Shown: positions 2,799 through 56,491, numbered from the stretch's first letter. The stretch: 64,000 nucleotides of DNA from Candidatus Zixiibacteriota bacterium (GCA_028289585.1 JANQPI010000035.1:30717-94716); one strand, 5' to 3'. Numbers and translations are program-made. The notes: a model not told the origin generated them from the letters alone.

Positions 2799-3638
2799 AT
2801 GCTCGACGCACTCAATCGATTCATCGCATTGTTCGTCGATACGTTCCGTCAGTTTGGCCGTGGCTCGGCCTGGCTCCCATTGGTTCTCTTCTACATCATT
2901 CTGACATTTGCTCTCGTGGTCCTGGTCCGATTCGCCGAACCGTTCTGGTTTGGTGCTGTCCTTGCCTGGCTGTCCCTTTTTGAGGCGGGCGTTACGCTCG
3001 GTTTTCAGCACTATCCCGATCACTATCTGCTGCTGCCGCAAGTCTTTGGCTACGCCAAACTAGCGCTTCAGGCGCTGCTTGCCGGATTCGTGCTGGCGTT
3101 AGTCGCGCGACAGTTCGCTCGCGCAATGGCGTCCGACGTCACTCAGCCAACCTCCTCGGTTCGCCTCTGGCTGCACGGCATCATGGTGTGGATACTCCTC
3201 AACGGCCTGCTTTGGCTGGCCGGTCGCTATCTTCCCGAGTTGCTGGGCACGCTGCTCGATGGACCGCGCCGACTTCTCGTCTATCAGTTCATCATCCTTC
3301 CGGGCATCAGCACCCTAATTCTGGCGCCATTGTTCTACGCGATTCCGGCCATTGCCCTCCATGGTGACTCCATTGGTCGCGCTCTTGGGCGATCGCTTCG
3401 GACGGCTGCGGGGCATCCGATTTCAACGCTGCTTCTGGCCGCCATGATTCTGTCGGGACCGGTTCTCTTCGCGATTATGGCTGGGTATTCTCCGCAGTTG
3501 ATTGAGCGATTTCGACCCGAGCTTGTCGCCTGGGTGCTTGGCGGAGGATTATTTGCCGAACTCGTTGCCTCGTTCTTCTGGATGTCGATTGGCGTACAGG
3601 TACTGCTCCGTGACGCCGGACGCCGCCTCGGCGTGTAA
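2799..3638 (+). CDS. Polytopic inner-membrane protein, function unknown
   Basis: 279-aa ORF with about 6-8 hydrophobic helices (for example WLPLVLFYIILTFALVVLV, ILPGISTLILAPLFYAIPAIAL). I recognise no family motif. Confidence 0.5.
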   Translation: MLDALNRFIALFVDTFRQFGRGSAWLPLVLFYIILTFALVVLVRFAEPFWFGAVLAWLSLFEAGVTLGFQHYPDHYLLLPQVFGYAKLALQALLAGFVLALVARQFARAMASDVTQPTSSVRLWLHGIMVWILLNGLLWLAGRYLPELLGTLLDGPRRLLVYQFIILPGISTLILAPLFYAIPAIALHGDSIGRALGRSLRTAAGHPISTLLLAAMILSGPVLFAIMAGYSPQLIERFRPELVAWVLGGGLFAELVASFFWMSIGVQVLLRDAGRRLGV

Positions 3639-3688: not shown

Positions 3689-5137
3689 ATGGCCGCTACG
3701 CTTACCATGCCCAGACTGAAGCATATTCTGCTCGTCGATGACGATCCAGAAGTCTCTCGGTCTTTGGCCAACCTGTTCGATAGCGACAAGTTCCGCTTCG
3801 ATTTTCTCGAAGACGGAGGAGAGGTTGAGCCGTTTCTAAGCTCGCATAACGAGGTTGATGTCGTGATGCTCGACGTTAATCTGCCGTCGCTGTCCGGTCT
3901 CGAAGTCCTCAAACAGATTCGCCGCAGTCATGCCGAGCTGCCGGTAATCATGATCTCCGGATTCGTTTCGACCGAGAACGCGATGGAGGCGATGCGCGAG
4001 GGCGCGTACGAATATCTCACGAAGCCGTTTGCCATCGACAAGCTGATTGATACCGTCAACAAAGCCTGCGGCTTCCAGCACCACCCCGCTAATCGTTCTC
4101 CGGTTGTTGAAACTCCCGTGGCGGTTGACGAGATCATTGGCCATTCCCCAGAGATCGTCGAGATCGCCAAGCTGATTGGTCAGGTTTCGAAAACCGACGC
4201 GGCGGTGCTGATCTTTGGTGAGTCAGGGACTGGAAAGGAACTCGTCGCTCGAGCGATCCACCGCAACTCCAAGCGGCACAACAACGCGTTCCTGTCGGTT
4301 AACTGCGCCGCGCTTCCCGAGACACTGCTTGAGTCGGAGCTCTTCGGTCACGAGAAGGGTGCATTTACCGGTGCCTACTACAAGCGCATTGGAAAGTTTG
4401 AGCAGGCCGATAGCGGCACGCTGTTTCTTGATGAGATTGGGGATATGTCGCTGCTGACTCAAGCCAAACTTCTTCGTGTGTTGCAGGAAAAAGAGTTTGA
4501 GCGAGTTGGTGGGAACGAACCGATCAACGTCGATGTCCGGATTATTGCCGCGACCAATAAGTCACTCGTGCAGGCGATGAAAGACGGCTCGTTCCGAGTC
4601 GATCTTTTCTACCGTCTCAAAGTCGTTTCACTATTCATTCCACCGCTTCGTGAACGTCGTTCCGATATCGGTCTGTTGATCGATTACTTCCGCGAGAAGT
4701 TCGCCCGGCAGTTGGGTGTCGACCCGAAACCGGTAGCCAAACGGGCATTGAACGAGCTGATGAAGTATCCGTGGCCCGGAAACGTTCGCGAGCTCGAGAA
4801 CAATGTTCATACCGCGTTGGTGATGTCCAAGAACGATTCTCTTGAGGAATCAGACTTCCCGTCCCTTGCTGAAACTTCGCCGAAGGTTGAGGTCGATCTT
4901 GAGGTCCTTCAGGACGACTACACGGAGACATTCCGCCAGATCGTTGATCCGGTGATGCCGAAGCTGATTGCGAACTCCCCGGGACAGATCTACCACTTCC
5001 TCGAAGCGGCCCTTGAGCGCGCGGTGATCAGCAGCTGTCTGCGGCAATTCGACGGCAATCAGGTCAAAACGTCCGAGACGTTGGGAATCTCCCGCAATAC
5101 GCTCCGCGACCGGATTGCCAAATACAACCTCTATTAG
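3689..5137 (+). CDS. Sigma-54-dependent response regulator (NtrC family: REC + AAA+ + Fis-type HTH); no kinase gene is adjacent
   Basis: REC (ILLVDDDPEV...VVMLDVNLPSLSGLEVL). Walker A GESGTGKE. GAFTGA loop (GHEKGAFTGA). ESELFGHEKG and RVDLFYRL motifs. C-terminal HTH (TSETLGISRNTLRDRIAKY). Confidence 0.92.
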   Translation: MAATLTMPRLKHILLVDDDPEVSRSLANLFDSDKFRFDFLEDGGEVEPFLSSHNEVDVVMLDVNLPSLSGLEVLKQIRRSHAELPVIMISGFVSTENAMEAMREGAYEYLTKPFAIDKLIDTVNKACGFQHHPANRSPVVETPVAVDEIIGHSPEIVEIAKLIGQVSKTDAAVLIFGESGTGKELVARAIHRNSKRHNNAFLSVNCAALPETLLESELFGHEKGAFTGAYYKRIGKFEQADSGTLFLDEIGDMSLLTQAKLLRVLQEKEFERVGGNEPINVDVRIIAATNKSLVQAMKDGSFRVDLFYRLKVVSLFIPPLRERRSDIGLLIDYFREKFARQLGVDPKPVAKRALNELMKYPWPGNVRELENNVHTALVMSKNDSLEESDFPSLAETSPKVEVDLEVLQDDYTETFRQIVDPVMPKLIANSPGQIYHFLEAALERAVISSCLRQFDGNQVKTSETLGISRNTLRDRIAKYNLY

Positions 5138-8289: not shown

Positions 8290-11073
8290 ATGACCATCAC
8301 TAGCCTACGAATCATCACGATTGGCCTGCTTCTGGGTCTGGCGACGACGAACGCTGCGGCACAGTTCTATTTCGGTCAGAACAAAGTTCAGTATACGGAC
8401 TTCGACTGGCAGGTAATGGAAACCAACCACTTCCGAATCTACTTCGATCGCCAGGCAGCCGACATCGCGGGTATCGCTGCTCGATCTGCTGAAGATGCTT
8501 ACGACTCCCTGTCGGCCAAGTTCAACCATGAGCTGACCGGGCGAGTCCCGATGATCATCTATTCCTCACCGTCGTTCTTCTCACAGACCAACACGATTAA
8601 TCAGCTCGTCCCGGAATCGGTCGCCGGGTTCACGGAGTTTCTCAAAGGCCGTGTTGTCCTTCCGTTCAACGGCTCGTATCGCGACTTCGATCACGTCATC
8701 ACTCACGAGGTAGTGCACGTCTTCCAGATTGATCGTCTGCAGAAAGCGCTCGCTCGCCAGGGGAACATCCGCTATGGCTGGCCGCCGCTCTGGTTTACTG
8801 AGGGCCTGGCGGAATACTGGTCGAAAGACTGGGATACCGAAGCGGATATGTTCGTGAAGGATATGGTCTTAAATGACCGTCTGCCGGCGATCGATGAGCT
8901 CTGGGCCTTTCGCGGTACGTACTTCATGTACAAACTCGGCGAGTCGATCTGCACGTTCATTGATACGACATACGGATCGGACGTCCTGACGCGGATTTAT
9001 CAGAACTGGTCGAAAGATCGGAGCTTCGATGAAGTCGTCCGGCTGACGACCAACGTGTCACTCGATGAAATTTCACGACAGTGGCAGTATTCACTCAAGA
9101 AGCGCTACTTCCCGCAGATCGACACCCTCGGACTGCCGCAGCTCGAATCGCGCCAGTTAACCCGTGATGGCTTCACTCCGGTTGGCGTACCCCTGCGTTG
9201 GGCTGATCCGTCGACCGGCGATACGACCGAATGGTTGGTCTTCAAGGCAAATCGGGTCGGATATACCGGGCTGTACCGGATGCCGCTCGGTGGTGGCGAA
9301 GTCGAAACGCTGGTCAGGGGTGAGCGGTCGTCGGATTTCGAGTCGCTGCACCTCCTGCGCTCGTCGATCGATGCCAACGACAACGGTGAGATCGTCTTCT
9401 CCGCCAAATCGAAAGAGCGTGATCTCCTCAACGTCTATTCGCTGGCGGAGATGGACGTCGTCGACCGTTATGAGATTCCTCATCTGACCGCTGCCCGTTC
9501 GCCACGACTTTCGCCCGATGGACGTTACATCGTCTTCACTGGCCACGAACGATCCGGTTACAGCAATCTCTACTTGCTCGATCGAACGACCGGCGGGTCG
9601 TTCGCCCTTCTTGATGATCGTTGGCATGATGTTGATCCCGCGTTTACTCCCGAGGGTTCGGCAGTCATTTTCGTCTCCGATCGTGGCCGTCATGGCGCCA
9701 GCGGTGCGACCAATCTGTTTCGCTATGATCTCGAATCGAAGCGCATTGCCCAGTTAACGTTTGGACCGTTCGAGGATCGTTCGCCCGAACCGACCGACTA
9801 CGGCATCTTCTTTTCGTCGAACCGGACCGGATCGTACAACGTGTTGCTTCGTCATGACGACGGAACGTTGACTCAGCAGTCGACGATGGTTACGGGGGCG
9901 TTCTCGCCTCGTTTGACGCCCGACGGTAAGTCGCTCACGTATACCGGCTACTCCAATCTGCGTTATCAACTCTACCAGTTGCGTCTCCCCGACGATCCGG
10001 CTGATGTTACCGATTTTCCGGCAACGACTGTCGCTGCCTGGCATCCCGAACGAATCGATTCCAGCTATACGCGCTCGTCGATTCGCTACGACACCGAGTT
10101 CTCGTTCGACATCGCCCAGTCGCAGATCGGGTATGATCCAATTTCCGGTACGGTCGGTGGTTTTCAAGCAGCCCTCTCCGACATGCTTGGCAATCAGATT
10201 ATCTACTTCCTGCTGACGAACACAGCGGAAGATCGCGATGAGTTCCTGTCGTCGTTCAACGTTGCCATTACCTACCTTGATCGTGGCCGGCGGCTGAATT
10301 ACGGTTTCGGTGCCTACCATATCTACGACGAGTACTTCAATGATCGTGATCAGTTCTACGATGAACGTCAGGCGGGTGGTCTCGGTATCCTCAGCTATCC
10401 GGTAAGCCGCTTTACGCGCTTCGACTTCGCGACGTTTGCGCGCTATCTCAAACGTGATCGTCGCTTCGGTCAGACCGATCGCGAAGCATTTGTGGTGACC
10501 AATTCGATATCGTGGATCGTCGACAATTCACTCTGGGATATTTCGGGACCTATCGAGGGCCGTCGTTACAATATCACCGCGGCCCTCAGTACGGCTGCCG
10601 ACAAGGGTCGGATCTGGAGTCGCACGTTTTCTGTCGATTTGCGACATTACTTCCGAATCGGCCGTTACTCGGCCTTTGCCAACCGTCTTTACGGCTACAC
10701 CTCAGACGGAATCGAACCGCAACGGAGGTATTTCGGGGGTTCCTGGTCATTCCGAGGTTTCGATCGCCGCGAGTGGTATGTGCCGCATATTCTCTTTGCT
10801 TCGAACGAGCTTCGTTTCCCGTTGGTTGACAATCTGCTGATCGGACTGCCCATTGGCGCGCTTGGTTTCCAGGCAATTCGTGGTGCGCTGTTCTTCGACG
10901 TTGGCTCGGCCTGGGAGGATGACTTCGATCAATTCCTCGGGTCGTTTGGGGCCGGCATACGCGTGACGCTTGGCTACTACGCTGTCCTGCGTTTCGACTT
11001 CTCACGAACGACAGATTTCGAGACGGTCTCCGACGGCACCGATGTCGACTTCTTCTTCGGATGGAATTTCTGA
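8290..11073 (+). CDS. Secreted chimera: gluzincin-like metallopeptidase motif, TolB/WD40-like beta-propeller repeats and a C-terminal Omp85 (BamA/TamA-type) beta-barrel
   Basis: Signal peptide MTITSLRIITIGLLLGLATTNAAAQ at in-frame ATG 8290. HEVVH, with WFTEGLAEYW about 28 residues downstream. Repeats SPRLSPDGRYIVFTG, PAFTPEGSAVIFVSDR and SPRLTPDGKSLTYTG. Omp85-type GGSWSFRGF and a terminal ...DVDFFFGWNF. The track ORF starts at 8077, but that extension has no signal peptide. Confidence 0.7.
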   Translation: MTITSLRIITIGLLLGLATTNAAAQFYFGQNKVQYTDFDWQVMETNHFRIYFDRQAADIAGIAARSAEDAYDSLSAKFNHELTGRVPMIIYSSPSFFSQTNTINQLVPESVAGFTEFLKGRVVLPFNGSYRDFDHVITHEVVHVFQIDRLQKALARQGNIRYGWPPLWFTEGLAEYWSKDWDTEADMFVKDMVLNDRLPAIDELWAFRGTYFMYKLGESICTFIDTTYGSDVLTRIYQNWSKDRSFDEVVRLTTNVSLDEISRQWQYSLKKRYFPQIDTLGLPQLESRQLTRDGFTPVGVPLRWADPSTGDTTEWLVFKANRVGYTGLYRMPLGGGEVETLVRGERSSDFESLHLLRSSIDANDNGEIVFSAKSKERDLLNVYSLAEMDVVDRYEIPHLTAARSPRLSPDGRYIVFTGHERSGYSNLYLLDRTTGGSFALLDDRWHDVDPAFTPEGSAVIFVSDRGRHGASGATNLFRYDLESKRIAQLTFGPFEDRSPEPTDYGIFFSSNRTGSYNVLLRHDDGTLTQQSTMVTGAFSPRLTPDGKSLTYTGYSNLRYQLYQLRLPDDPADVTDFPATTVAAWHPERIDSSYTRSSIRYDTEFSFDIAQSQIGYDPISGTVGGFQAALSDMLGNQIIYFLLTNTAEDRDEFLSSFNVAITYLDRGRRLNYGFGAYHIYDEYFNDRDQFYDERQAGGLGILSYPVSRFTRFDFATFARYLKRDRRFGQTDREAFVVTNSISWIVDNSLWDISGPIEGRRYNITAALSTAADKGRIWSRTFSVDLRHYFRIGRYSAFANRLYGYTSDGIEPQRRYFGGSWSFRGFDRREWYVPHILFASNELRFPLVDNLLIGLPIGALGFQAIRGALFFDVGSAWEDDFDQFLGSFGAGIRVTLGYYAVLRFDFSRTTDFETVSDGTDVDFFFGWNF

Positions 11074-12251: not shown

Positions 12252-14376
12252 GTTAACGCACAGCTTCATTCGTGAACTCGCTCTGGCAACACGCAAGTTT
12301 GCCATCTACGGTCCCGACCACCAGGTCGCCACCCGTTCTCTCGACGCCCCTCTTCGCCATCTTGCGATTCTTCTGAAAGTTCGCACCCACGTGATCGTTG
12401 CTCTCGATCGAGGTCAGCTATCCTGTGCTAATATCACGATCCGACCGAGTGTCCAGACCGGACCACTGGTCGAAGCGATGCAGCGCCTCGACACCTATAC
12501 GATCTCGTTTTTCCCGGGCGCCACCGCCGGGCATCTAGGTCAGTTTCTGACATCTCTGGTTCGCCGCGAACACCAGTTCGATCCGAATTTTGATCTCGCC
12601 TCTCATTTGAAGGCTCAGAACCTGACGACCGTTACCGTCAATTCGGAATTCGGGACGGAAGTCCACGAAAATCGCAAACTGTACCGCGGTGACGTTGCGG
12701 GCGACTTCACGACTCGCCATCTCCTCGCCGATCAGATCGGTACCGATCCGAAGCGGATCGCTACCGTCAATCTCGGCGATGATCAACGTCTGATTGACCT
12801 CGGCATTGACTATCATCCGGAACTGGTCCGGTACGTCGTGCCCGAGCTGATTGCTCGGATCCCGGTCCACGAGATGGTCGCCATGATCAAGCGGTTGTTC
12901 GCCGACGCCGAAGATCTCGATCCCAACGGTAGTGCGTCGGCGCCCGCCCTGGCCGGATCACTGTTGGCGCTGACCGAGTTTCACCCGCGCCGGGCTGACA
13001 TCGTATCCCAGTTGCCGGGCTTGAGCGAGGCCGAAGAACCGACGTCGGTTCCGCCGTCGGTTCAGATGAAAGAGGAAGTAGCCTCGGCGTTCGATAGCTC
13101 CCTTCAGGCGATTTTTGCTGGTTCAGGTTCAATTGACGACCTGCCACGGCTGTTCGATCGCCTGCTGAAGACGGGACAGGAAGTCAAAGCCGCTGACATT
13201 CTCGGTGATCTCATTGATCGGTTGGATGTCATCAATCCGCATGACCGTCAGACGGCTGCCGAAATTCTGCTGGCACTGCTGCCACTCATTTCGCCGCAAC
13301 GTCAGCAGGCACTCCTGAAGTCGCTCATCGATACGGTAACGCAGATCGTACTCGATCAGCGGGAAGCGCTTGAGCATGCCGAGCTGATTACGGCGCTTTT
13401 CGATCACCTCTTTGCAGCTGCCTGGTATGAACCACTCATCACGTTGTCCGCGGCGTTGCATGATCGGACCACCCGCGAAGCCGAGCATACGACCTACGAT
13501 TCGCTCGGTATTCGACGTGTCTTCGAAAAGCTGAATCGTCCTGCAATGGTCGAACGATACCGCGAGCTACTCGTCACCGCCGACCACGAGACAACGCAGC
13601 AGCTCCGGTCGATTCTCAGCTCGATTGGTACCGAGAGCCTCGCTGCCGGTCTGGCCGAAATAATCACGCATGACAACCGCCAGGTCCGTCAAACCGTCCT
13701 GCGGATCCTGACCGAGCTTGGTCCGGCAACACTCGCCGTGGTTGCACGTATCCTGGCCGACGAGAGCCTTTGGCTCCGTGCGGCCGATCGAACCGAACTG
13801 CCGGATCAGCAATGGTATGTCGTCCGCAATTCGATCTACGTGCTTGGCGGTATCCGTGAAACGCGCGGTGTTGAGGTCCTTCATGGTCTCGTTGGTGATG
13901 CCGACCTGCGGGTTCGTCGCGAGATCATCGCCGCGCTTGAGAAGATCGGTGGCAGCAACGCAGTGGACCTGCTCTCGGTCATGGCCGAGGATGTCGTTCC
14001 GGAGATTCGCGAGGCGGCCCTCATCACGATCGGGCTAATCGGCGACGCCGATGCTTCGCCGCTGGTGATCGCGCACATTACGAACGACGCCAAACTGACG
14101 CTCAAAGGGATTGCGGCGCTGGGGCGGCTTGGTGGCGAGGCCGCCTGTAGCTGGCTTGGCGAGGCGCTGACCGATCCGGAGGCGTTCTCTGAGCTCGATC
14201 GCGGTATGGTCGGCAAAGACGACCTACGGGCCGCTCTTATCCGAGCGTTGGCTCAGACTGGCGAAGCTTCGGCCCGCGAGCAGATCAAGGTGTTCAAGGA
14301 GTCGCTGTCGACCGCGAGTCGGCTGTTTGGCCGGAATTCAGCGGTTCAGAAGGCGTTGTCAGACGTCGGCATCTAG
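12220..14376 (+). CDS. Large protein with C-terminal HEAT (PBS-lyase-type) repeats; the N-terminal ~480 aa are unassigned
   Basis: HEAT-like repeats (VRQTVLRILTELGPATL..., LRVRREIIAALEKIGGSNAVDLL, PEIREAALITIGLIGDADASPLV). The start is uncertain (ATG 12220 chosen; the track ORF begins at 12172) and overlaps the upstream gene. Confidence 0.55.
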   Translation: MAALLRQDCHELTHSFIRELALATRKFAIYGPDHQVATRSLDAPLRHLAILLKVRTHVIVALDRGQLSCANITIRPSVQTGPLVEAMQRLDTYTISFFPGATAGHLGQFLTSLVRREHQFDPNFDLASHLKAQNLTTVTVNSEFGTEVHENRKLYRGDVAGDFTTRHLLADQIGTDPKRIATVNLGDDQRLIDLGIDYHPELVRYVVPELIARIPVHEMVAMIKRLFADAEDLDPNGSASAPALAGSLLALTEFHPRRADIVSQLPGLSEAEEPTSVPPSVQMKEEVASAFDSSLQAIFAGSGSIDDLPRLFDRLLKTGQEVKAADILGDLIDRLDVINPHDRQTAAEILLALLPLISPQRQQALLKSLIDTVTQIVLDQREALEHAELITALFDHLFAAAWYEPLITLSAALHDRTTREAEHTTYDSLGIRRVFEKLNRPAMVERYRELLVTADHETTQQLRSILSSIGTESLAAGLAEIITHDNRQVRQTVLRILTELGPATLAVVARILADESLWLRAADRTELPDQQWYVVRNSIYVLGGIRETRGVEVLHGLVGDADLRVRREIIAALEKIGGSNAVDLLSVMAEDVVPEIREAALITIGLIGDADASPLVIAHITNDAKLTLKGIAALGRLGGEAACSWLGEALTDPEAFSELDRGMVGKDDLRAALIRALAQTGEASAREQIKVFKESLSTASRLFGRNSAVQKALSDVGI

Positions 14377-14413
14377 CCGCTCGCGACTACCGTAATCAAT
14401 CTCCAGTACCCAC

Positions 14414-14490
14414 TGCCATAGTGGCGCTTCAGCATGCCGAAGAGGCATTTCAAGTGTGCCGTTGTGGCATTGTCTGGCGCCATATTGGCA
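14414..14490. promoter_or_regulatory. Array of four phased inverted repeats, TGCC-N5-GGCA, in the hsp20 upstream region
   Basis: TGCCATAGTGGCG (14414-14426), TGCCGAAGAGGCA (14435-14447), TGCCGTTGTGGCA (14457-14469), CGCCATATTGGCA (14478-14490). Centre-to-centre spacing is 21, 22 and 21 bp. Confidence 0.6.
14475..14490 (+). promoter_or_regulatory. Sigma-54-like -24/-12 element (TGGCGC-N5-TGGCA), candidate hsp20 promoter
   Basis: TGGCGCCATATTGGCA has the GG-N10-GC spacing. The -12 element reads TGGC rather than TTGC. It overlaps the fourth palindrome, so the resemblance may be incidental. Confidence 0.3.
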
Positions 14491-14633
14491 TAACCGGTTC
14501 CAGTCTCAATCCTACAAAAAAACGTAACTCGTTGTAAGAGAGCCGACTATGTCGGTTGGCATGAGGGTTGTTTAGTCATTGGCTGAATGACAAACCGAAC
14601 GCAAACGATAACGATACGCAAGGAGAGCTAACA

Positions 14634-15059
14634 ATGACGCACCTGACGATTTCAAACCGACTGGAGAACGAAATCAACCGCTTCTTCAACGAGGCGTTCG
14701 ACCGCCCGGCCCGCTCCCGCTCAACCGCCACCGGTTGGCCGCGAGTGAACATCGCCGACGGCGCGGACGAGATCGCGCTGATCTTCTCCCTCCCCGGTTT
14801 CGAGAAGGAGAACATCAAGGTCACTGTGACCGACAATGTTCTGACGGTTTCCGGCAAGCGCGAGCTGAGCACCGATCTCAAGGACGCAAACTGGGTCCGC
14901 ACCGAGTACCGCGCCGGTGAGTTCAGCCGCTCGCTGACGCTACCCGAGACGGTGAACACCGACGCGATCAAGGCGGATTACAAGAATGGTCTTCTGGAAG
15001 TCCGTCTCGCCAAGATCGAAGAGGTCAAGCCGAAGGAAATCGAAGTCAAAGTTTCATAA
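14634..15059 (+). CDS. hsp20: Small heat-shock protein, Hsp20/alpha-crystallin family
   Basis: ATG 14634 is preceded by AGGAG (14621-14625). Alpha-crystallin core: PRVNIADGADEIALIFSLPGFEKENIKVTVTDNVLTVSGKRE...AGEFSRSLTLPETV...ADYKNGLLEVRL. Confidence 0.9.
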   Translation: MTHLTISNRLENEINRFFNEAFDRPARSRSTATGWPRVNIADGADEIALIFSLPGFEKENIKVTVTDNVLTVSGKRELSTDLKDANWVRTEYRAGEFSRSLTLPETVNTDAIKADYKNGLLEVRLAKIEEVKPKEIEVKVS

Positions 15060-15093
15060 AGCACCAGTAACGTGGTGTCGTGGCGTGGTGGAA

Positions 15094-15120
15094 GGTCGGG
15101 CGGCAACGCCCGGCCTTTCC
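15094..15120 (+). terminator. Candidate intrinsic terminator after hsp20
   Basis: GGTCGGGCG-GCAA-CGCCCGGCC stem-loop (9 bp including one G-U pair) followed by TTTCC. The U-tract is short. Confidence 0.4.
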
Positions 15121-15260
15121 CGTATGTGTGACTCAGTCACTCTGTTTGTCGCACACTTTGTGTGTCTCGAATGTGCTGTTTACTGTTACCTGCTAGTATG
15201 ATGATTGAAATGAATCGCACCGCGGGTGCGACGTAGAATAGGGAAGGAGGTGATACGGAA

Positions 15261-16199
15261 TTGGCGATGAACGACTATTACAAAATTCTCGGCGTAAGCG
15301 AGAACGCGACGCCCGAGGAGATGAAGAAGCAATTCCGCAAGCTCGCCAAGGAGTATCACCCCGATCGGCATCAGGGTGACCCGGCGAAAGAGGCGAAGTT
15401 CAAGGAGATTGCCGAGGCGTACGACACGCTGTCCGATCCGAAGAAGCGCCAGGAATACGACATGATGCGCCGCTACGGTGCCCACACCGGTGCCGGTAAC
15501 TTTGGCGGCGGCCAGGGCTTCCCCGGTGGAATGGGGGGCGGCAACTTCCAGGGCGGGTTCACGTTCGACTTTGAGGATTTCCTCAATCGCGGCAGCCAAC
15601 GCGGATCCGGAATTGACGACATCCTCAACGAGATCTTCGGTGCCGGGATGTCCGGCCGAGGCTTCGGCCAGCGACCGAATCCGTTTGGACGAGCGACGCA
15701 AAAGCCAACCAAAGGCCAGGATATCGTTGCCCGTCTTGCGATCTCATTTACCGAGGCGGCGAACGGCACGACACGCCGCATTGAGTTGACGAACGGTATA
15801 AAGCTCAACGCAAAGATTCCGGCGGGGATCGCCGATGGCGGCAAGATTCGCCTGCGCGGGCAGGGGAATCCGAGCCACAACGGTGGTCCGGCGGGTGACT
15901 TGATTATTACGGTGACGGTTATGCCTGATCGAGATTTCGAGCGCAAAGGAAACGATATCTATTCATCGACGACGATCTCGTTCAAGGATGCGATTCTGGG
16001 GACAAAGATCGACGTGCGCACGTTATCCAAGACCGTCACGCTGAGCGTGCCGGCAGGCACCCAGCCGGGTACAAAGCTGCGCTTGAAAGAGATGGGTTTG
16101 GATGTCGGCGGCAAGACCGGCGATCATTATGTGACTATAAACGTCACTATTCCGAAATCGCTGACCGACGAACAGCGTGAGGCGCTGGAACGTTTCTGA
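15261..16199 (+). CDS. cbpA: DnaJ-class co-chaperone without a zinc-finger domain (CbpA/class B type)
   Basis: J domain [35 protein letters not shown]-rich linker and C-terminal substrate-binding domains. No CxxCxGxG repeats. RBS GGAAGGAGG at 15242-15250. The start is TTG 15261 or ATG 15267. Confidence 0.88.
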
Positions 16200-16201: not shown

Positions 16202-17467
16202 ATGTTGAACCGACCTGAAAAGTTAGCTTTGGTTCCAATACCTACCTGGTACGGTAATGCCCCCGAGCTCCATATGGCTGGTATACCTGCTGACGTTGGA
16301 GCATTTGCCGAGGCACTTCTATTCTATGATCGGCTATTGGTCCAGGTCGAATCCGAAAGACAACTGCATTGCCTCCTGTCATGGTTCACCTCTTCAGTAG
16401 ATTCAGATCGATTCACGAAGTTACTCGAAGAAGGATCGGTCCAATTTATCTACTTTGATTGGGTAGCAACTCCAGTCCAACGCAATGACTCAGATGATTA
16501 TCTTCTATGGAATATAGTTGAAGAGAAGCCGAAAGGTTTGAATCCCGATCGGCTGTACAAGTTCAAGAAGCGAGTGATACCGCTACCTTCCCGGTATTTC
16601 AGCAGTTCCAGGAAAATGCGTCGATTTGCTGATGTCTTACACTCAAGTGTTGTGGTTGTTGATGTCGATTCATTCGGGAATGGCATTTCTGTCTCTAGGG
16701 CTTGGGTAGAACAACAAGAAACACACCGATTGATTTTGCAGTCACTTGTTGACTCACTGCACTCAACTGGTGCTCTAGAGGGATGTCCGAAGGTAGAGGT
16801 AACCGTAGAGGATCTGAAACGAGGAAAGAAGCGAATACACTCAAACGTATCCTTTGATGACATAGCCAAGAAACTGCCTGTCAACAGTGGATTCGGAAAG
16901 AGCGTGCCATTAGCCATTGGTACCAATTTAGCGAGGTTGGCCTGGGCGGCTGCAAACAACGATACAGATCTGTATGTTAGTAATCCGATGTTGACAGCGG
17001 CCAACCACTTGATAAGTGAAGCAGTAGGAGAAGCAGGGAAGGTTCAGTCGGGACTAGATGTATTGAGTACCGAGCATTCGTTGCCTGACATCAGGATGCA
17101 GGTCAATTCGAATGAGGTGTCTGCCGAGAAGATACTTCGGTTAAGAACTGAAGTGACGGAGTTTCGCGATTGGTTTCATCAGACGATTTCCGAAGAGCGG
17201 TCTATTGATCAGGCTTATGCCAATGATGTTGTCAATCGCTACGGAATTTCCTCCCGACTCCAAAGGTCTCTCGAGGCAACTGTCGCGACAGGAACAACTA
17301 GCGCGGTCGGTTTGGCGACAGCGCAATTTGATCCGGCTGTCTGCGCGATTGCGACTTCGGCTTCTGCGGGCGTAATCCATTTCGAGCTAGATCTTGTTAA
17401 GAAACTTTGTGGTGAGTGGAGGCCGAAGATCTTTGGCGGAAGGCTCAGAAAAGCAACTGATGGTTGA
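16202..17467 (+). CDS. Hypothetical protein with no recognisable domain; low-GC insert between the dnaJ-like gene and clpB
   Basis: 421-aa ORF starting 2 nt after the dnaJ-like stop and ending 9 nt before clpB. Sampled 60-nt lines give about 42-57% GC (mean near 47%), against about 68% in a sampled clpB line. It uses AT-rich codons (TTA, AGA, ATA). Confidence 0.55.
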   Translation: MLNRPEKLALVPIPTWYGNAPELHMAGIPADVGAFAEALLFYDRLLVQVESERQLHCLLSWFTSSVDSDRFTKLLEEGSVQFIYFDWVATPVQRNDSDDYLLWNIVEEKPKGLNPDRLYKFKKRVIPLPSRYFSSSRKMRRFADVLHSSVVVVDVDSFGNGISVSRAWVEQQETHRLILQSLVDSLHSTGALEGCPKVEVTVEDLKRGKKRIHSNVSFDDIAKKLPVNSGFGKSVPLAIGTNLARLAWAAANNDTDLYVSNPMLTAANHLISEAVGEAGKVQSGLDVLSTEHSLPDIRMQVNSNEVSAEKILRLRTEVTEFRDWFHQTISEERSIDQAYANDVVNRYGISSRLQRSLEATVATGTTSAVGLATAQFDPAVCAIATSASAGVIHFELDLVKKLCGEWRPKIFGGRLRKATDG

Positions 17468-41365: not shown

Positions 41366-41399
41366 TTGACAGAACGTGTTCTCTGGCACAATCTTAGCG
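41366..41399 (+). promoter_or_regulatory. Promoter-like region upstream of tRNA-Gly: a perfect TTGACA -35 box overlapping a sigma-54-like TGGCAC-N5-TAGC element
   Basis: TTGACA at 41366-41371. TGGCACAATCTTAGC at 41384-41398 has the GG-N10-GC spacing. The tRNA 5' end is at 41409. Confidence 0.35.
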
Positions 41400-41408
41400 C
41401 TCCGGTCA

Positions 41409-41483
41409 GCGGGCGTAATTCAGTGGTAGAATGCAAGCTTCCCAAGCTTGACGTCGCCGGTTCGAGTCCGGTCGCCCGCTCCA
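41409..41483 (+). tRNA. tRNA-Gly (anticodon CCC), with encoded CCA
   Basis: Manual cloverleaf. Acceptor GCGGGCG/CGCCCGC. D-arm ATTC-AGTGGTA-GAAT. Anticodon arm CAAGC-TTCCCAA-GCTTG. T-arm GCCGG-TTCGAGT-CCGGT. Discriminator T plus CCA. Confidence 0.95.
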
Positions 41484-50509: not shown

Positions 50510-51439
50510 ATGATCGATCGGGCGACACCATCAGAATCAGAAAACGAACTCAGCGAGATCGTTGATTCGTTCGTCATCGAATCACGAGAGCTCCTGGCCG
50601 ACTGCTATCGGTATCTCAACCGATGGTCGACCGACGGAGATGCGGGCGATTCGATGGCGGATCTTGCCCGGGCATTACACACAATCAAAGGCACCGCCAG
50701 CTTTCTGAATCTCGAGGCGATTGTCGCGCGGGCGCATGCTCTTGAGGAGACGCTTCGCGCGTTCGGCTGCGACCAATCCACGGTGACAGTCGATGCCGTT
50801 GGCGAACTGAGTGACCACCTGGATCAGCTGGCGATCGATGTCTCACTGGTGGGGGAGATACGCCCAGAAAACGTACCACATCGTCCGTTCACCGAAGTAG
50901 CTGTCGCTGCCTACTGTCAGGCGCTCGCGGGGTACGTCGAGCGAATTGCCGCTGAGTGCAGCATTAACGCGGCGCTCTCAGTCAGCGTTCGCCCCGATGA
51001 TCTTCCTTATCAACTCGTTCAGCCGCTGTCATCAGCGATTCTCCATTTGCTGCGTAATGCGTGCGCCCACGGCATAGAGTCGGCCGGTCTACGGGTCGCC
51101 GCTGGAAAGCCGGCAACCGGTGTGATTTCTCTGAGCATCGAACTTGACGACCAGCAGCTGACGGTGCGTGTCGCCGATGATGGTCGGGGGCTTGATGCTA
51201 AGGCAATCTCAGCGGCCGCGCGAGAGTTTGGGGAGGCGGCAACCGGCCCCATGACTGCCGAGGAGCAGATCATCCTTCCAGGGTTCTCCACCGCGCTCTC
51301 AGCTGGCCCCCTCGCCGGTCGAGGGTATGGCCTCGATGTCGTTCGCCGGAGCGCTGAGGCACTGGGTGGCAGGCTCGTTGTCGAGGGTCGTCAGGGTCAC
51401 GGTTTCGCAGCCGTGGTTACCATTCCGCAAATCCGGTAA
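50510..51439 (+). CDS. Minimal CheA-like kinase: HPt (P1) plus CheA-type HATPase (P4) only
   Basis: HPt motif LARALHTIKGTASFL. CheA-type N-box HLLRNACAHGIES, G1 ADDGRGLD, F-box IILPGFSTA, G2 AGRGYGLDVV. At 309 aa there is no room for the P2, P3 or P5 (CheW-like) domains. Confidence 0.75.
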   Translation: MIDRATPSESENELSEIVDSFVIESRELLADCYRYLNRWSTDGDAGDSMADLARALHTIKGTASFLNLEAIVARAHALEETLRAFGCDQSTVTVDAVGELSDHLDQLAIDVSLVGEIRPENVPHRPFTEVAVAAYCQALAGYVERIAAECSINAALSVSVRPDDLPYQLVQPLSSAILHLLRNACAHGIESAGLRVAAGKPATGVISLSIELDDQQLTVRVADDGRGLDAKAISAAAREFGEAATGPMTAEEQIILPGFSTALSAGPLAGRGYGLDVVRRSAEALGGRLVVEGRQGHGFAAVVTIPQIR

Positions 51440-51502
51440 GTCTAACTTTTAGTTGAAGATAGCTCCTTCCACCGGCATTGTCGCAAACGGTGGTAAGGGA
51501 AT

Positions 51503-52870
51503 ATGTCTGATCGAGATCAACTCGTCGCAGCGCTGGCGGCATCGAACGGTGACAATTCTGTCGGCTCGTTTACGGAGTCGTATGCCGTCTTTCAGCGGTC
51601 GATTAACCGTCTCCAGCGGCAGTATATCCAACTCCGCGAGGAGTTTTCGGCTCAGAATAGCCAGCTCGTAGCGCTAAATCGCGAGCTGGTATCGCTGACC
51701 GGCCAGAACGTCGCCACCACCCAGTTTCTTGACTCAATTCTTCGGGCACTTGGTGTCGCCGTTGTTGCTGTCGATCGCCGGGGCATAATCACGCACTGTA
51801 ACCCCGCGGCCTGTCACCTCTTAGGAGTTGAAGAGTCAGCTCTTCTTGGCCAGCCGTACGAGGTCGCCGTGCCGTCGCTTGCCGACGATGGTGCGACTGC
51901 GGCCGCCGCCATACGATCGGGCGAAACGGTCGCCAATGTACCGCGTCGACTCATCCTTCCTGGACAACCCGAGCTTCAGCTCTCGGTGTCCACCGCCCTT
52001 CTGCACGACGATGAGGGGGCGATTAGTGGAGCGGTTGAAATATGTCATGATCTGACGCCTCTGCGGCGGATGGAGCAGGAGGTCGCACGTCTGAATACCC
52101 TGGTTGCCCTGGGTGAGATGGCCGCGACAATCGCGCACGAGGTTCGCAACCCCCTCGCTGGAATCGCCGGATTCGCCTCCCTCCTGAGGAATGATCTTGA
52201 AGAAGAAGATCCGCGGCGACGGACCGCGGACAAGATCATTAAGGGGGTCGAAGCGCTCGACCATACCGTTACGACACTGCTCAACTACACCCGCCAGGAA
52301 GAACTGCAGATGCAGTCGGTCTCATTATTGCCCTGGCTGACACAAATTATCGCACGCTGGCGGACTGAATCTCCTGATCGAGGTCGACCGACGTTACGTG
52401 CTCCGAAAGATCCTGCCTTAGTTGACTTCGTCCTTTCTGTCGATCCCGTGCTCATGCACCAAGTACTGTTCAACCTGTTTGCCAATGCGTATGAGGCCGC
52501 CGGCGACGGGGACGTAACGATTACGCTATCGACTCGGCTCCTCGCACGATCGCATGCCGTCGTCAGTTATGGTGACCAGATACCGTTGACCCTGAACGAA
52601 ACGATCGTTGAGCTGTTGGTCAGTGATGATGGCCCCGGTGTCCCGAGCGAAATGCTCCCCAAGCTGTTTCGTCCCTTCTTTACGACCAAGAAACAGGGGA
52701 CCGGGCTCGGTTTAGCCGCTGCTGCCAAGATTGTACGTGCTCACGGTGGAGCGATCGATGCTCGCCCGGCCGAGCCAACGGGTCTAACCATTGTTATTGC
52801 ATTACCTGTAGCCCTGCCGTCTGCGACGGCACCGACACGGATGTCGGAATCCGGGGAGAGGAGAGCATGA
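51503..52870 (+). CDS. PAS-domain sensor histidine kinase (NtrB/FleS-like)
   Basis: PAS (VAVDRRGIITHCNPAACHLLGV), H-box MAATIAHEVRNPLAGI, HATPase FFTTKKQGTGLGLAAAAKIVRAHGG. Confidence 0.9.
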   Translation: MSDRDQLVAALAASNGDNSVGSFTESYAVFQRSINRLQRQYIQLREEFSAQNSQLVALNRELVSLTGQNVATTQFLDSILRALGVAVVAVDRRGIITHCNPAACHLLGVEESALLGQPYEVAVPSLADDGATAAAAIRSGETVANVPRRLILPGQPELQLSVSTALLHDDEGAISGAVEICHDLTPLRRMEQEVARLNTLVALGEMAATIAHEVRNPLAGIAGFASLLRNDLEEEDPRRRTADKIIKGVEALDHTVTTLLNYTRQEELQMQSVSLLPWLTQIIARWRTESPDRGRPTLRAPKDPALVDFVLSVDPVLMHQVLFNLFANAYEAAGDGDVTITLSTRLLARSHAVVSYGDQIPLTLNETIVELLVSDDGPGVPSEMLPKLFRPFFTTKKQGTGLGLAAAAKIVRAHGGAIDARPAEPTGLTIVIALPVALPSATAPTRMSESGERRA

Positions 52871-54279
52871 AGCACGCCGTCCTGATTGTAGACGACGATC
52901 CGTTTGTAAATGAATTCGTAACTGAGGCCTTAACGCGACTCGGCTATGAAACCGAATCAGTCCTGAGCGGTGAAGATGCTCTCGTCGCGATGGATGACCG
53001 AGAATTCGATATCGTTCTGACCGACCTCAAGATGGGGGGGATGGACGGTCTGGAGCTGTTGCGATCGATTCGACGGCGTGATGCTCAGGCGATAGTTATG
53101 ATTATGACCGCTTACGGATCAGTGGAAACTGCCGTACGTGCTGTAAAAGACGGTGCCTACGACTTCCTCATTAAACCGGTGACTCCCGAAACCCTTGAAA
53201 TCAAGCTCGGTCAGGCGGTAGAAACATTGCTGCTCCGCCAGGAAAATCAACAGCTGCGCCAGGATTTGACACATGACTACATGAGCATGATCGGTAAGAG
53301 CGGAGTCATGCGCGAAGTCTATGAAAAGATTCAGGCTGCGGCCACCGCCCGCTCAACCGTGTTGCTGACCGGTGGCTCCGGCACTGGTAAGGAGATGGTA
53401 GCACGTGCGCTGCATTTCGCCTCACCCAGGAGTAACGGTCCGTTCGTGCGCGTCAACTGTGCTGCTCTGCCCGATGAACTGGTCGAATCGATGCTCTTTG
53501 GCCACGAGAAGGGAGCGTTTACGCACGCCTATAAGGCAACGCGTGGGCGCTTTGAGGTTGCCGACGGCGGTACGATCCTGCTCGACGAAATCTCCGAGAT
53601 GAATATCAATCTGCAGGGGAAGTTACTTCGCGTTCTGCAGGAGTCTGAGTTTGAGCGGGTCGGTTCGGAGGAGACGATCAAAGTCGATGTCCGGGTCATT
53701 GCGACGTCGAATCGCAATCTGAAAGAATACATCGAGCGCCGTCAATTCCGCGACGACCTGTACTACCGACTGGCGGTTGTGCCGATCCACCTTCCGTCGC
53801 TGGAACAGCGCAAAGAAGATATCCCATTGCTCGTCGACCACTTCGTTCGGAAGTACAACGCCGAGAATGGTCGTTCGGTCAAGGGCCTGACGCGGGGGGC
53901 ATTGAACCTCTTTGCCGGCTATCATTGGCCGGGCAACGTCCGGGAGCTGGAGAACGTCATTGAGGGAGCGATCGTCATGGCTCGCGATGAGTGGCTAACC
54001 GAGGACGACTTCCCAATGGAAATGTCTCTCGGACGTGTCGCTGACCACGCGCCAAGCTTTGAAGTTCCGCTGACCATCAAAGAAGGGAATCGGTTCCTCG
54101 TTCTCAAGACGCTCGAGTTCACCAACAATAATCGTACCGAGGCGGCCCGACGACTGGGCATCACCACTCGAACCCTGCGCAATTGGCTTAACGAGTGGGG
54201 AATGGGAGCCGGGGGCGGGGATTCCGATGATGAGGAGGAGGAATCGGCCGGTACCGACCGAGCCGGTTCTGCCGCCTGA
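52867..54279 (+). CDS. Sigma-54-dependent response regulator (NtrC/FleR/FlrC type)
   Basis: ATGA overlap with the kinase gene. REC (VLIVDDDPFV...IVLTDLKMGGMDGLELL), GGSGTGKE, GHEKGAFTHA, Fis-type HTH (TEAARRLGITTRTLRNWL), acidic tail. Confidence 0.92.
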   Translation: MKHAVLIVDDDPFVNEFVTEALTRLGYETESVLSGEDALVAMDDREFDIVLTDLKMGGMDGLELLRSIRRRDAQAIVMIMTAYGSVETAVRAVKDGAYDFLIKPVTPETLEIKLGQAVETLLLRQENQQLRQDLTHDYMSMIGKSGVMREVYEKIQAAATARSTVLLTGGSGTGKEMVARALHFASPRSNGPFVRVNCAALPDELVESMLFGHEKGAFTHAYKATRGRFEVADGGTILLDEISEMNINLQGKLLRVLQESEFERVGSEETIKVDVRVIATSNRNLKEYIERRQFRDDLYYRLAVVPIHLPSLEQRKEDIPLLVDHFVRKYNAENGRSVKGLTRGALNLFAGYHWPGNVRELENVIEGAIVMARDEWLTEDDFPMEMSLGRVADHAPSFEVPLTIKEGNRFLVLKTLEFTNNNRTEAARRLGITTRTLRNWLNEWGMGAGGGDSDDEEEESAGTDRAGSAA

Positions 54280-54303
54280 TCTGCTCAGAGACTGACCAGA
54301 CCT

Positions 54304-54311
54304 GCCGATAA
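54304..54311 (+). promoter_or_regulatory. Sigma-28 (FliA)-type -10 box GCCGATAA upstream of motA; no convincing -35
   Basis: An 8/8 match to the GCCGATAA -10 consensus, 60 nt before the motA ATG. The region expected to hold TAAA reads TCAG. Confidence 0.25.
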
Positions 54312-54371
54312 CTACTCGTAGTAGCCGGCCGATACGACATCGGCGGGCCGGGAAAGCTACGGACGGTTCGG

Positions 54372-55139
54372 ATGGATCTGGCAACCCTTATCGGTCTCAT
54401 CGTTGCCTTCGGCGCGGTCGGCGGCGGCTTCCTGATGGAAGGCGGCTCGCTTGATGCGCTCGTCCTGTTGCCTCCGATTATTATCGTCGTGGGTGGCACT
54501 CTCGGCGCGACGATGGTGACAACATCCTTCGGCACCGTGGTTCGTGCGCCGCTCTATCTCCGCCTCGCTTTCTTCAGCAAAGCCCCTAATCGGGCAGCAA
54601 CGATTGATCAGATCACCCGCCTCGCCGAGAAAGCGCGACGGGAGGGTATTCTGGGTCTGGAGACCGATCTTAAGAAGATTCGGCACCCGTTCTTTCACAA
54701 AGCGATCCAGCTGCTGATCGATGGCACCGAGGTGACGGTCCTTCGTGAAATTCTCGAAACCGAAATTGCCTATATCGAAGAACGTCACCGTAAAGGAATC
54801 GTCTTTTTCCAAAAAGCGGGTGGCTTTGCGCCTACGTTGGGAATCCTTGGCACGGTCATGGCGCTCGTGCACACGTTGGGCAACATGGAAGACGCCGGCA
54901 CGATGGCTCGATCGATTGCGACGGCGTTCATTGCTACCTTGTGGGGCGTAGGCACCGCAAACCTCTTCTTCCTCCCCATCGCCGACAAGCTTGTCATGCG
55001 GCACGAAGAAGAAGCCGCTCATCTGGAGCTGATTGTCGAAGGGATCGTTTCGATTCAATCGGGTGACAACCCGCGCAATGTCCGGACGCGACTTCTGTCG
55101 TTTGTTTCACCCGAACAGCGTTCGATTCCGCGGAGATAG
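54372..55139 (+). CDS. motA: Flagellar stator protein MotA (MotA/TolQ/ExbB channel family)
   Basis: MDLATLIGLIVAFGAVGGGFLMEGG. C-terminal channel helices ATLWGVGTANLFFLPIADKL. Confidence 0.92.
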   Translation: MDLATLIGLIVAFGAVGGGFLMEGGSLDALVLLPPIIIVVGGTLGATMVTTSFGTVVRAPLYLRLAFFSKAPNRAATIDQITRLAEKARREGILGLETDLKKIRHPFFHKAIQLLIDGTEVTVLREILETEIAYIEERHRKGIVFFQKAGGFAPTLGILGTVMALVHTLGNMEDAGTMARSIATAFIATLWGVGTANLFFLPIADKLVMRHEEEAAHLELIVEGIVSIQSGDNPRNVRTRLLSFVSPEQRSIPRR

Positions 55140-55142
55140 TCG

Positions 55143-55910
55143 ATGCGTCGCCGTCGCCGCCCGACCGGGGGTAACGATAATTTCGAGCGCTGGTTGCTTA
55201 CCTATGCTGACTTGATCACGTTGCTGCTCGCATTTTTCATCGTGATGTATTCAATGTCGTCAGTCGACGACAAGAAGTTCGACCAGGTCACGAGTGCGCT
55301 CAATGGCGTTCTCAAAGGCGGAAAAAGCCTGATTGAACGCGAGGGAACAATTCCCTCGGAACGACGGGCCGGTCGCGGGATTATTCATCTCGGCAATCTT
55401 GACATGATTCGCGAACGGATCGATCAGCGCTTCTCACGTTTGCAGCGCCGTGACGAAATCGAAACCGAGATCACGGAACGGGGACTTGTCATTCACGTGC
55501 TCGAATCAGCACTTTTTGCTGAGGGAGAGGCTGAGTTGCAGCCACGCGCGCAGGAAGTGCTCGATCTGATCGCCACCGAGCTCGTTGGCATTCCCAATCA
55601 CGTCCGCGTTGAGGGGCATACCGATGATCGCCCGATCCAAACGCTGGCGTATCCGACCAACTGGGAGCTGTCAGCGTCGCGCGCAACGCGAGTTGTCCGC
55701 TACTACATCGAAAACTTCGAGATCTATCCCGGTCGAATATCTGCCCTCGGATACGGCCGCTACCGCCCGATCGTCCCGAACAATTCGATCGAGAACCGAG
55801 CCCGCAATCGGCGCGTCGATGTCGTTATCCTGACAATGGATTTGACGCTCAAAGAACCCTCGAGCCAGCTCTTCTCTCCCGATTTCGCGGCGGAATCGAA
55901 TTCCCCCTAG
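55143..55910 (+). CDS. motB: Flagellar stator protein MotB (OmpA-like peptidoglycan-binding C-terminus)
   Basis: WLLTYADLITLLLAFFIVMYSMSS contains the plug/TM with the conserved Asp. OmpA-like VEGHTDDRPI...NWELSASRA...NRRVDVVI. Confidence 0.92.
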   Translation: MRRRRRPTGGNDNFERWLLTYADLITLLLAFFIVMYSMSSVDDKKFDQVTSALNGVLKGGKSLIEREGTIPSERRAGRGIIHLGNLDMIRERIDQRFSRLQRRDEIETEITERGLVIHVLESALFAEGEAELQPRAQEVLDLIATELVGIPNHVRVEGHTDDRPIQTLAYPTNWELSASRATRVVRYYIENFEIYPGRISALGYGRYRPIVPNNSIENRARNRRVDVVILTMDLTLKEPSSQLFSPDFAAESNSP

Positions 55911-55972
55911 GGTGGAATGATTAGCCACGTGTCGCTCGCAGACGACTCGCTACTGCACCCCATCTGAGCGAT

Positions 55973-55998: not shown

Positions 55999-56016
55999 GC
56001 GTGCTGCCTGAAGACT

Positions 56017-56480: not shown

Positions 56481-56491
56481 GAGCACGGCAG

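Follow-up and report, generated by a model that had tools for sequence, protein, structure and literature searches.

The results presented here suggested that four phased palindromes upstream of hsp20 in a Candidatus Zixiibacteriota bacterium were likely to be the upstream activating sequence (UAS), or enhancer, of a σ54-dependent hsp20 promoter. The gene was located in a 64,000-nucleotide stretch of DNA (GCA_028289585.1, JANQPI010000035.1:30717-94716), which is referred to here as the window and from whose first nucleotide all window positions were counted. The 13-bp palindromes, or dyads, occupied positions 14414 to 14490 and were part of one fixed layout at about 45 related hsp20 loci: four dyads, an integration host factor (IHF)-like site, a σ54-type promoter box, an A-rich leader, hsp20, and an intrinsic terminator. 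The elements, their order, and their fixed spacing were conserved over these loci. An earlier examination of the window that used the sequence alone (the sequence-only reading) had described the dyads and offered two explanations for them: a cooperative operator for a heat-shock regulator or an enhancer for one of the σ54 activators encoded in the window. It had also proposed that a long structured leader, possibly an RNA thermometer, preceded hsp20.

The dyads were found in the intergenic spacer between a HEAT-repeat gene (stop at position 14376) and hsp20 (ATG at position 14634). This spacer, at positions 14377 to 14633, was 257 nucleotides long and AT-richer than its surroundings, as had been proposed; the GC content was 0.47 to 0.49 in the spacer versus 0.57 in the whole window. 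Dyad 1 (TGCCATAGTGGCG, 14414 to 14426) had a position weight matrix (PWM) score of 14.5, and its center was about 163 bp upstream of the predicted transcription start. Dyads 2 (TGCCGAAGAGGCA, 14435 to 14447) and 3 (TGCCGTTGTGGCA, 14457 to 14469) were perfect matches to TGCC-N5-GGCA, and dyad 4 (CGCCATATTGGCA, 14478 to 14490) had a PWM score of 16.3, the highest in the window. The start-to-start spacings were 21, 22, and 21 bp. Thus, the sequences, coordinates, and spacings in the sequence-only reading were accurate. It had also placed one mismatch at the outermost base of each outer dyad. The mismatch was indeed single and at the terminal base of the 13-mer, but it was on the side that faced the interior of the array, and the mirror symmetry that had been ascribed to the whole array was not kept in relatives.

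Three exact matches to TGCC-N5-GGCA were present in the 64-kb window versus 0.96 expected. When up to one mismatch was allowed, 43 matches were present versus 25 expected, and four of the matches fell inside 77 bp. We also generated 300 simulated 64-kb sequences with a first-order Markov model. In none of the 300 did at least three sites fall inside an 80-bp interval or form a chain of three or more at 19- to 23-bp spacing, and a phased pair of any kind was produced in only 17 of the 300. Based on the match counts and the simulations, which never reproduced the phased array, we concluded that the four-dyad array was not a chance cluster. The remaining perfect TGCC-N5-GGCA match in the window (TGCCGTTAAGGCA, 59575 to 59587) was isolated within the fliG coding region and was most likely a product of chance.

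We examined the upstream regions of four NCBI/Logan loci and 80 metagenome loci, with relatives taken from NCBI metagenome-assembled genomes and JGI metagenomes. Thirty-seven sequences were anchored without gaps on the σ54-type box, dyad position statistics were derived from 34 loci, and positions were counted from the T of TGGCAC. In addition, a dyad PWM was used to scan 1.13 Mb of fetched loci. The dyad consensus was TGCCATWWTGGCA, or cTGCCATWWTGGCAg when the flanks in the 34 relatives were included. The dyads in the relatives started at −141, about −121.5, about −99.5, and −78, with the counterparts of window dyads 2 and 3 at about −121/−122 and −98/−100 from the box, respectively. Site 1, which had a mean of 1.0 mismatch, started 139 to 145 bp upstream of the box in all 34 loci, usually at 141 bp (±2) and at exactly −141 in 21 of the 34; site 4 started at −78 in 23 of the 34. 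The spacings in the 34 relatives were 19 to 20, 22 to 23, and 21 to 22 bp, for a total of 63 bp, and the positions were constant to ±2 bp. Thus, the alignment of relatives' hsp20 upstream regions, which the sequence-only reading had put forward as a check, revealed a conserved array and a conserved box.

The positions of the sites in the relatives placed the dyad centers 7.0, 9.05, 11.1, and 13.0 helical turns (10.5 bp each) from the −24 GG of the box. The centers were near whole helical turns from the GG, and therefore all four dyads shared a face of the DNA with the −24 element. In the window itself, the distance from the −24 GG to the center of dyad 1 was 138.5 bp (13.2 turns), and the distance to the center of dyad 4 was 74.5 bp (7.1 turns). 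The sequence-only reading had placed the dyads on one face of the DNA, and that placement held; in addition, the centers were in phase with the −24 GG.

The layout had a variant and a limit. In a lineage consisting of one GTDB genome (L014) and three metagenome loci (L080, L091, and L108), the same motif was present as two dyads that were 30 to 31 bp apart, and the start of the first dyad was about 140 bp (in L091, 118 bp) upstream of the box. Distant Hsp20 loci (37 to 41% identity) often kept the box and lacked the dyads, and neither the box nor the dyads were found in the Acidobacteria, Nitrospirae, Verrucomicrobia, and five Bacteroidota hsp20 loci that were examined. A search of genome contigs with a single Hsp20 protein yielded only distant homologues (≤43% identity), and of these L014 alone contained the module.

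The predicted σ54-type promoter of hsp20 (TGGCATGAGGGTTGTT, plus strand) was located at positions 14557 to 14572. It consisted of TGGCAT at 14557 to 14562, with the −24 GG at 14558 to 14559, and a −12 element, TTGT, with its TTG at 14568 to 14570. The consensus in the relatives was TTTGGCACG-N4-TTG(A/T)T. TGGCA with a TTG 11 to 13 nucleotides later was invariant in the 37 anchored relatives, and the sixth base of the −24 element was C in 33 of the 37. Other columns were conserved in the anchored set, including a TAA at −32 to −30, a TTG at −25 to −23, and an invariant T at −9 within CTTA. Downstream of the box, the anchored relatives carried GGnCAGAA at +24 to +31, followed by an A-rich tract. 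Exact matches to TGGCAC-N5-TTG occurred 53 times in the 1.13 Mb; 44 of these were upstream of hsp20, and the other nine compared with about 8.6 expected by chance. Almost all Zixibacteria-type loci had the box, and its distance to the ATG was 62 to 148 nucleotides in all loci with a box, 62 to 104 nucleotides in Zixibacteria-type loci, and 65 to 104 nucleotides in the loci that were clearly from Zixibacteria.

The −24 half of the box was a textbook σ54 element. Several related loci (L061, L080, L082, L103, and L108) had a canonical −12 element (TTGC, CTGC, or TAGC) at the same place, which supported the assignment of the box to the σ54 type. A canonical box of the form (T/C)GGCAGC-N4-TTTGCT was present elsewhere in the phylum. 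Moreover, σ54 activators, with Sigma54_activat domains, were encoded in the window. We therefore read the hsp20 box as a putative genuine σ54 promoter that has a promoter-specific −12 variant, with the −12 feature of σ54 promoters incompletely represented.

Similar strings were seen elsewhere. A weak σ54-like string (CGGCACGGCATCTGTA) with the same T-for-C replacement at −12 was found at position 56017 in the window, downstream of motB. In locus L072, an exact TGGCACGATTATTGTT box was found near position 7987 on the minus strand, about 114 nucleotides upstream of a gene that, by eye, resembled an M50/CBS-type membrane protease. No TGCCAT dyads were found upstream of this box, which may be another σ54 target with the same noncanonical −12 element. 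A TGGCAC-N5-TAGC string was located in the spacer of the TTGACA-N17-CAATCT sequence that precedes tRNA-Gly(CCC) (tRNA at 41409 to 41483, whole region at 41366 to 41483); this string is a chance look-alike of a σ54 box.

The sequence-only reading had pointed to a different σ54-like string, TGGCGCCATATTGGCA (14475 to 14490). A promoter there would give a start near 14500 and a leader of about 135 nucleotides in which two hairpins would serve as a thermometer. The string had the GG-N10-GC spacing that had been claimed for it, but it was not conserved as a σ54 box. Specifically, the two positions of the GG in front of dyad 4 were G in only 6 of 34 and 5 of 34 relatives, respectively, and the GC belonged to the GGCA half-site of dyad 4, which indicated that the string was a by-product of that dyad. 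A promoter at 14475 would also place the dyads at −17 to −81, over the site for the polymerase. The proposal that the array is an enhancer for a σ54 activator was supported: the array was at a fixed distance from a conserved σ54-type box, with an IHF-like site between them, but the conserved box was about 80 bp downstream of the string that had been singled out.

The leader and the thermometer were the other parts of that proposal. Small heat-shock protein mRNAs often carry thermometers, and both hairpins were present as written: hairpin 1 (CCGAC-TAT-GTCGG, 14543 to 14555) just upstream of the conserved box and hairpin 2 (GTCATT-GGCTG-AATGAC, 14575 to 14591) straddling the predicted transcription start. 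However, neither hairpin was found in relatives, in which the box downstream of position 14475 was invariant. No Rfam match was found in the spacer (14377 to 14633), even at E values up to 10. A 171-nucleotide version of the longer leader folded no better than shuffled sequences (z = −0.54), and its Shine-Dalgarno sequence was not in a stable helix. The predicted 5′ untranslated region plus the first codons (14581 to 14665) had a folding energy of −4.7 kcal/mol versus −8.97 kcal/mol for shuffled sequences (z = +1.81), and its Shine-Dalgarno sequence was not sequestered. The Rfam search, the folding z-scores, and the lack of hairpin conservation did not support an RNA thermometer, whether of the ROSE type, the fourU type, or a similar type, and we regarded a promoter at 14475 with a thermometer leader as extremely unlikely.

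For the box at 14557, we predicted a transcription start near position 14583, which would be 26 to 28 nucleotides after the T of TGGCA. The predicted 5′ untranslated region (14583 to 14633, plus strand) was about 50 nucleotides long and A-rich, with a Shine-Dalgarno sequence, AAGGAG, at 14620 to 14625. With this predicted start, most of the sequence that had been taken for a long structured leader would be spacer that is not transcribed, and the array would lie at about −98 to −163, which is the usual position of an enhancer and not that of an operator.

Between the array and the box, an A-tract (ACAAAAAAAC) was followed by an IHF-like core (TAACTCGTTGTAA); together they spanned positions 14515 to 14537, with the core at 14525 to 14537. 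The core corresponded to WATCAANNNNTTR in reverse. In the anchored relatives, matches to the IHF consensus with up to two mismatches peaked at −20 on the forward strand (18 of 37) and at −32 on the reverse strand (13 of 37), and every other position had matches in fewer than 4 of the 37 loci. This stretch is probably a site for DNA bending or for an architectural protein between the enhancer and the promoter.

The four dyads might instead be coated by dimers of a heat-shock repressor that silences a σ70- or σ32-type promoter in or beside the array, which was the first of the two explanations in the sequence-only reading. Phased palindromes in tandem are likewise characteristic of repressors that bind cooperatively, many small heat-shock protein genes are controlled by repressors, and the array was conserved upstream of a heat-shock gene. 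On the other hand, a scan of both strands of positions 14200 to 15400 with the σ70 consensus, the only consensus used, found no −35/−10 pair at 16- to 18-bp spacing. The array was 75 to 140 bp upstream of the conserved box, and its end was 67 bp from the box and did not overlap it. In addition, repression would leave the invariant TGGCA-N6-TTG at its fixed distance and the IHF-like site without a role. The motif had been described as neither a CIRCE nor a HAIR element, and our scans of the window agreed. Specifically, the CIRCE (HrcA) operator, TTAGCACTC-N9-GAGTGCTAA, had no match in the window at up to three mismatches. The HAIR (HspR) operator, CTTGAGT-N7-ACTCAAG, had three matches in the window versus 2.0 expected, each with three mismatches and none near hsp20. 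Taken together, these results made a repressor very unlikely, and they did not support a cooperative heat-shock operator.

We also determined where else the dyads occurred. Dyad clusters were detected by the PWM in 48 sources, and in 46 of these the cluster was in the hsp20 upstream spacer. Stray dyad pairs were seen in L048 (a second pair), L086, and L012. No dyad clusters were found upstream of dnaK, dnaJ, clpB, or any other gene in the 1.13 Mb of fetched loci; dnaK and clpB were among the genes at which the sequence-only reading had recommended looking for arrays. Thus, the module was specific to hsp20, its single target gene among the sampled loci.

The hsp20 gene itself (14634 to 15059, plus strand) encodes a 141-amino-acid α-crystallin small heat-shock protein (Pfam HSP20, E = 1.1e-23). 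Its nearest homologues (55 to 61% identity) were from named Zixibacteria. An exact-sequence look-up of the protein returned no match, and an identical protein (P0001) was found in the protein collection. An intrinsic terminator (GGTCGGGCG-gcaa-CGCCCGGCC followed by TTTCCC) was located at positions 15094 to 15121 on the plus strand. A GC-rich hairpin and a run of at least three T nucleotides followed the hsp20 stop directly in all 22 loci examined, in which dnaJ or dnaK was the next gene (for example, L037 at 3163 to 3190 and L048 at about 10484 to 10515). The conserved terminator indicated that hsp20 was a one-gene unit and that the module did not drive dnaJ or clpB. Since hsp20 was transcribed alone, transcription of dnaJ, dnaK, and clpB must begin at other promoters. 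A MAFFT alignment of the spacer that separates the terminator from the dnaJ-like gene (15122 to 15260) revealed no motif in common with relatives.

The gene order around the module was also conserved across Zixibacteria. Upstream of hsp20 were genes for an outer-membrane barrel, BacA, GT9, a Tricorn-like peptidase, a PQQ propeller, and the HEAT protein, and the order then continued with hsp20, dnaK in some genomes, dnaJ, and clpB. In the window, hsp20 was followed by a DnaJ/CbpA-like gene, a 421-amino-acid open reading frame, and clpB, with no dnaK between hsp20 and the dnaJ-like gene. A dnaK gene was present at that place in L043, L045, L047, L049, L051, L055, L061, L062, L064, L078, L084, and L090. 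The open reading frame (16202 to 17467) had no Pfam or NCBIfam match, and a homologue was found in L050 only among all fetched loci (33% identity).

If the array is an enhancer, an enhancer-binding protein (EBP) should act through it, and the sequence-only reading had proposed one of the two in the window. Our analysis of the two proteins left this proposal doubtful. EBP2 (52867 to 54279) was located after a PAS histidine kinase gene and before motAB, fliF, fliG, and fliI, in a flagellar and chemotaxis region (50510 to 64000) that also contained a CheA-like fragment. By this context, EBP2 was FlrC/FleR-like, and it was rejected as the hsp20 activator because its neighbors marked it as a flagellar regulator. 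EBP1 (3689 to 5137) was an orphan NtrC-type response regulator whose scores reached the cut-off of none of the named NCBIfam activator families; the window's NtrC-type protein scored 464 bits versus the NCBIfam NtrC cut-off of 558.6. EBP1 was syntenic, always about 10 kb upstream of hsp20, and its identity across Zixibacteria was 73 to 82%, compared with 73 to 78% for ClpB and about 30 to 60% for other neighbors.

However, EBP1 had a canonical σ54 promoter and a different palindrome of its own. EBP1 closed a cluster of Bac_transf, PEGA, fn3, 279-amino-acid protein, and EBP1 genes. This cluster had a canonical σ54 box, (T/C)GGCAGC(A/G)CTTTTGCT, at 5341 to 5356 in L117 and at about 5627 to 5642 in L119, and in both genomes a GCAA-N4-TTGC palindrome was found about 190 bp upstream of the box. 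No TGCCAT dyads were found near the cluster. The cluster promoter is likely to be the more natural target of EBP1, in a separate envelope or polysaccharide regulon, and we considered EBP1 a weak candidate that was rather unlikely to be the hsp20 activator. In L045, L049, and L061, a GAFTGA sequence that lay about 2.9 kb downstream of hsp20 was a false alarm, since it formed part of KYGAFTGAG in the DnaJ-like protein. In some loci with the inserted dnaK, the DnaJ-like proteins contained GAFTGA, which mimicked the signature of σ54 activators in motif searches.

Several observations weighed against an enhancer and a σ54 promoter at hsp20. An activator gene was found within 10 kb of hsp20 in none of the loci. 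The half-site centers of the 13-bp dyad were only about 8 bp apart, which is short for the Fis-type helix-turn-helix that is usual in σ54 activators, as judged by NtrC and Fis sites. The C of the −12 element was replaced by T in the window and by A or T in 35 of the 37 relatives (TTGA/TTGT), such that one textbook feature of σ54 promoters failed, and the −24 element in the window was TGGCAT rather than TGGCAC. Finally, the IHF-like match in the window was weak, with two mismatches, and was found in the reverse orientation only.

Some of these observations were also consistent with a different role for the dyads, in which they bind a protein other than the AAA+ activator itself, and this protein, which could be of the anti-activator, co-activator, or nucleoid type, modulates the σ54 promoter while the activator works from solution or from another site. 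The geometry of a 13-bp dyad is unusual for an activator domain of the Fis type, the motif could not be tied to a cognate activator, and activators that have no DNA-binding domain, such as those of the FlgR and Chlamydia CtcC type, do exist. However, the position of the dyads, their copy number, their phasing on one face, and the IHF-like site matched the standard enhancer layout exactly, and no further conserved block that might act as a UAS was seen in the spacer. A role of this kind therefore seemed unlikely, and binding of the dyads by an activator remained the explanation that we favored.

In the proposed mechanism, dimers of an AAA+ EBP would bind the four TGCCATWWTGGCA sites, which are two turns apart and on the same face as the −24 element, and the bound dimers would assemble into an active ring. 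A bend at the IHF-like site (about 14515 to 14537), to which we infer that IHF binds, would bring the ring to σ54-RNA polymerase waiting in a closed complex at TGGCAT-N5-TTGT (14557 to 14572). ATP hydrolysis would then open the promoter, and transcription would start near 14583. The transcript would open with a short leader that is A-rich and unstructured and carries a strong ribosome-binding site, would continue through hsp20, and would end at the terminator at 15094 to 15121. The inducing signal would presumably be heat or protein-folding stress, as suggested only by the nature of the gene.

The proposed arrangement resembled well-characterized σ54 systems. NtrC at the glnAp2 promoter of enteric bacteria binds dyad sites about 100 to 160 bp upstream of the σ54 promoter, with whole-turn phasing, and acts via DNA looping. 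The hsp20 region likewise had several phased dyad sites upstream of a σ54-type box, and the mechanism of oligomerization and looping would presumably be shared. The resemblance was strongest for the two-dyad lineage, with its 30- to 31-bp spacing and a first dyad that started about 140 bp (in L091, 118 bp) upstream of the box. In contrast to the 17-bp NtrC site, TGCACCA-N3-TGGTGCA, the hsp20 motif was the 13-bp TGCCATWWTGGCA. Four sites of similar quality were present at two-turn spacing, the target was a small heat-shock gene, and the −12 element lacked the C. In the case of PspF and pspA, a stress-protection gene has a σ54 promoter, upstream activator sites, and an IHF site between them. The hsp20 module shared the stress gene and, putatively, the enhancer and an intervening IHF site, and release of PspF from its inhibitory partner provides a model for how a signal could reach an activator. 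The motif was different, however, the number of sites was four rather than two, and neither a PspF-like nor a PspA-like gene was found near hsp20.

There are precedents for σ54-type control of heat-shock genes. In Escherichia coli, the small heat-shock gene ibpB is transcribed by σ54 polymerase, according to PMC2831329, which cites Kuczynska-Wisnik 2001. The ibpB box, TGGTAA-N5-TTGCT, lies inside the ibpAB operon and beside a σ32 promoter, whereas the σ54-type box at hsp20 appeared to be the sole conserved promoter and had an elaborate enhancer. No dedicated enhancer array is known at ibpB. In Myxococcus xanthus, the heat-shock gene lonD is directly activated by the NtrC-like protein HsfA of the HsfB/HsfA phosphorelay (PMC9109919). 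This is also control of a heat-shock gene by an NtrC-like activator, but the phylum and the target (Lon protease) are different, and no kinase and regulator pair was linked to hsp20 in Zixibacteria.

The FCB (Fibrobacteres-Chlorobi-Bacteroidetes) group includes both Zixibacteria and Bacteroidota. A 2025 survey reported, in the portion considered here, that matches to σ54 promoters were enriched upstream of genes for IbpA, GroEL/ES, GrpE, DnaK/J, and others in Bacteroidota and Planctomycetota (PMC12316311). That portion dealt with promoters only and named no enhancer motif or activator, and Zixibacteria were outside its coverage. Compared with the pattern described there, hsp20 alone carried the module, and dnaK, dnaJ, and clpB lacked it in the sampled loci. 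Our literature search found no paper that contained the motif strings described here or that joined "Zixibacteria" to "sigma-54".

A broader and more speculative proposal is that in Zixibacteria and some allied uncultured lineages σ54 and a dedicated EBP form the main switch for small heat-shock protein synthesis. The activator could sense folding stress directly if it were inactive while bound by a chaperone, as PspA holds PspF, and were freed once the chaperone had been titrated. Selection could also be maintaining the absence of the −12 C (TTGAT/TTGT), which is conserved. As work on −12 mutants has shown, the closed-complex lock is less tight when the −12 element is weaker, and a weaker σ54 lock at hsp20 might, as a speculation, make promoter opening sensitive to temperature. 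We considered this proposal, with the chaperone-held activator and the temperature-sensitive opening as its possible parts, a tentative one with a rather small chance of being correct. If it is true, the control logic of heat shock in these bacteria would be unlike that of σ32, HrcA, HspR, CtsR, or RNA thermometers.

The module described here comprised a new motif and a new regulon of one gene, both belonging to a familiar class, that of enhancer-dependent σ54 promoters. Its notable features were the four equally spaced sites, the very rigid geometry, and the conserved noncanonical −12 element. The four-dyad sequence would be a clean bait for the cognate activator, and the module offers a natural test case for the effects of enhancer site number, two-turn phasing, and a noncanonical −12 element on promoter output. 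For annotation, the lesson is that the "leaders" upstream of small heat-shock protein genes should not be assumed to be RNA thermometers. For a phylum that is known only from metagenomes, the findings provide a concrete regulatory module with a 13-bp motif, a fixed geometry, and one target. They also suggest that σ54 control of a small heat-shock gene, which is exerted by a side promoter in E. coli and is phylum-wide here, can be ancient.

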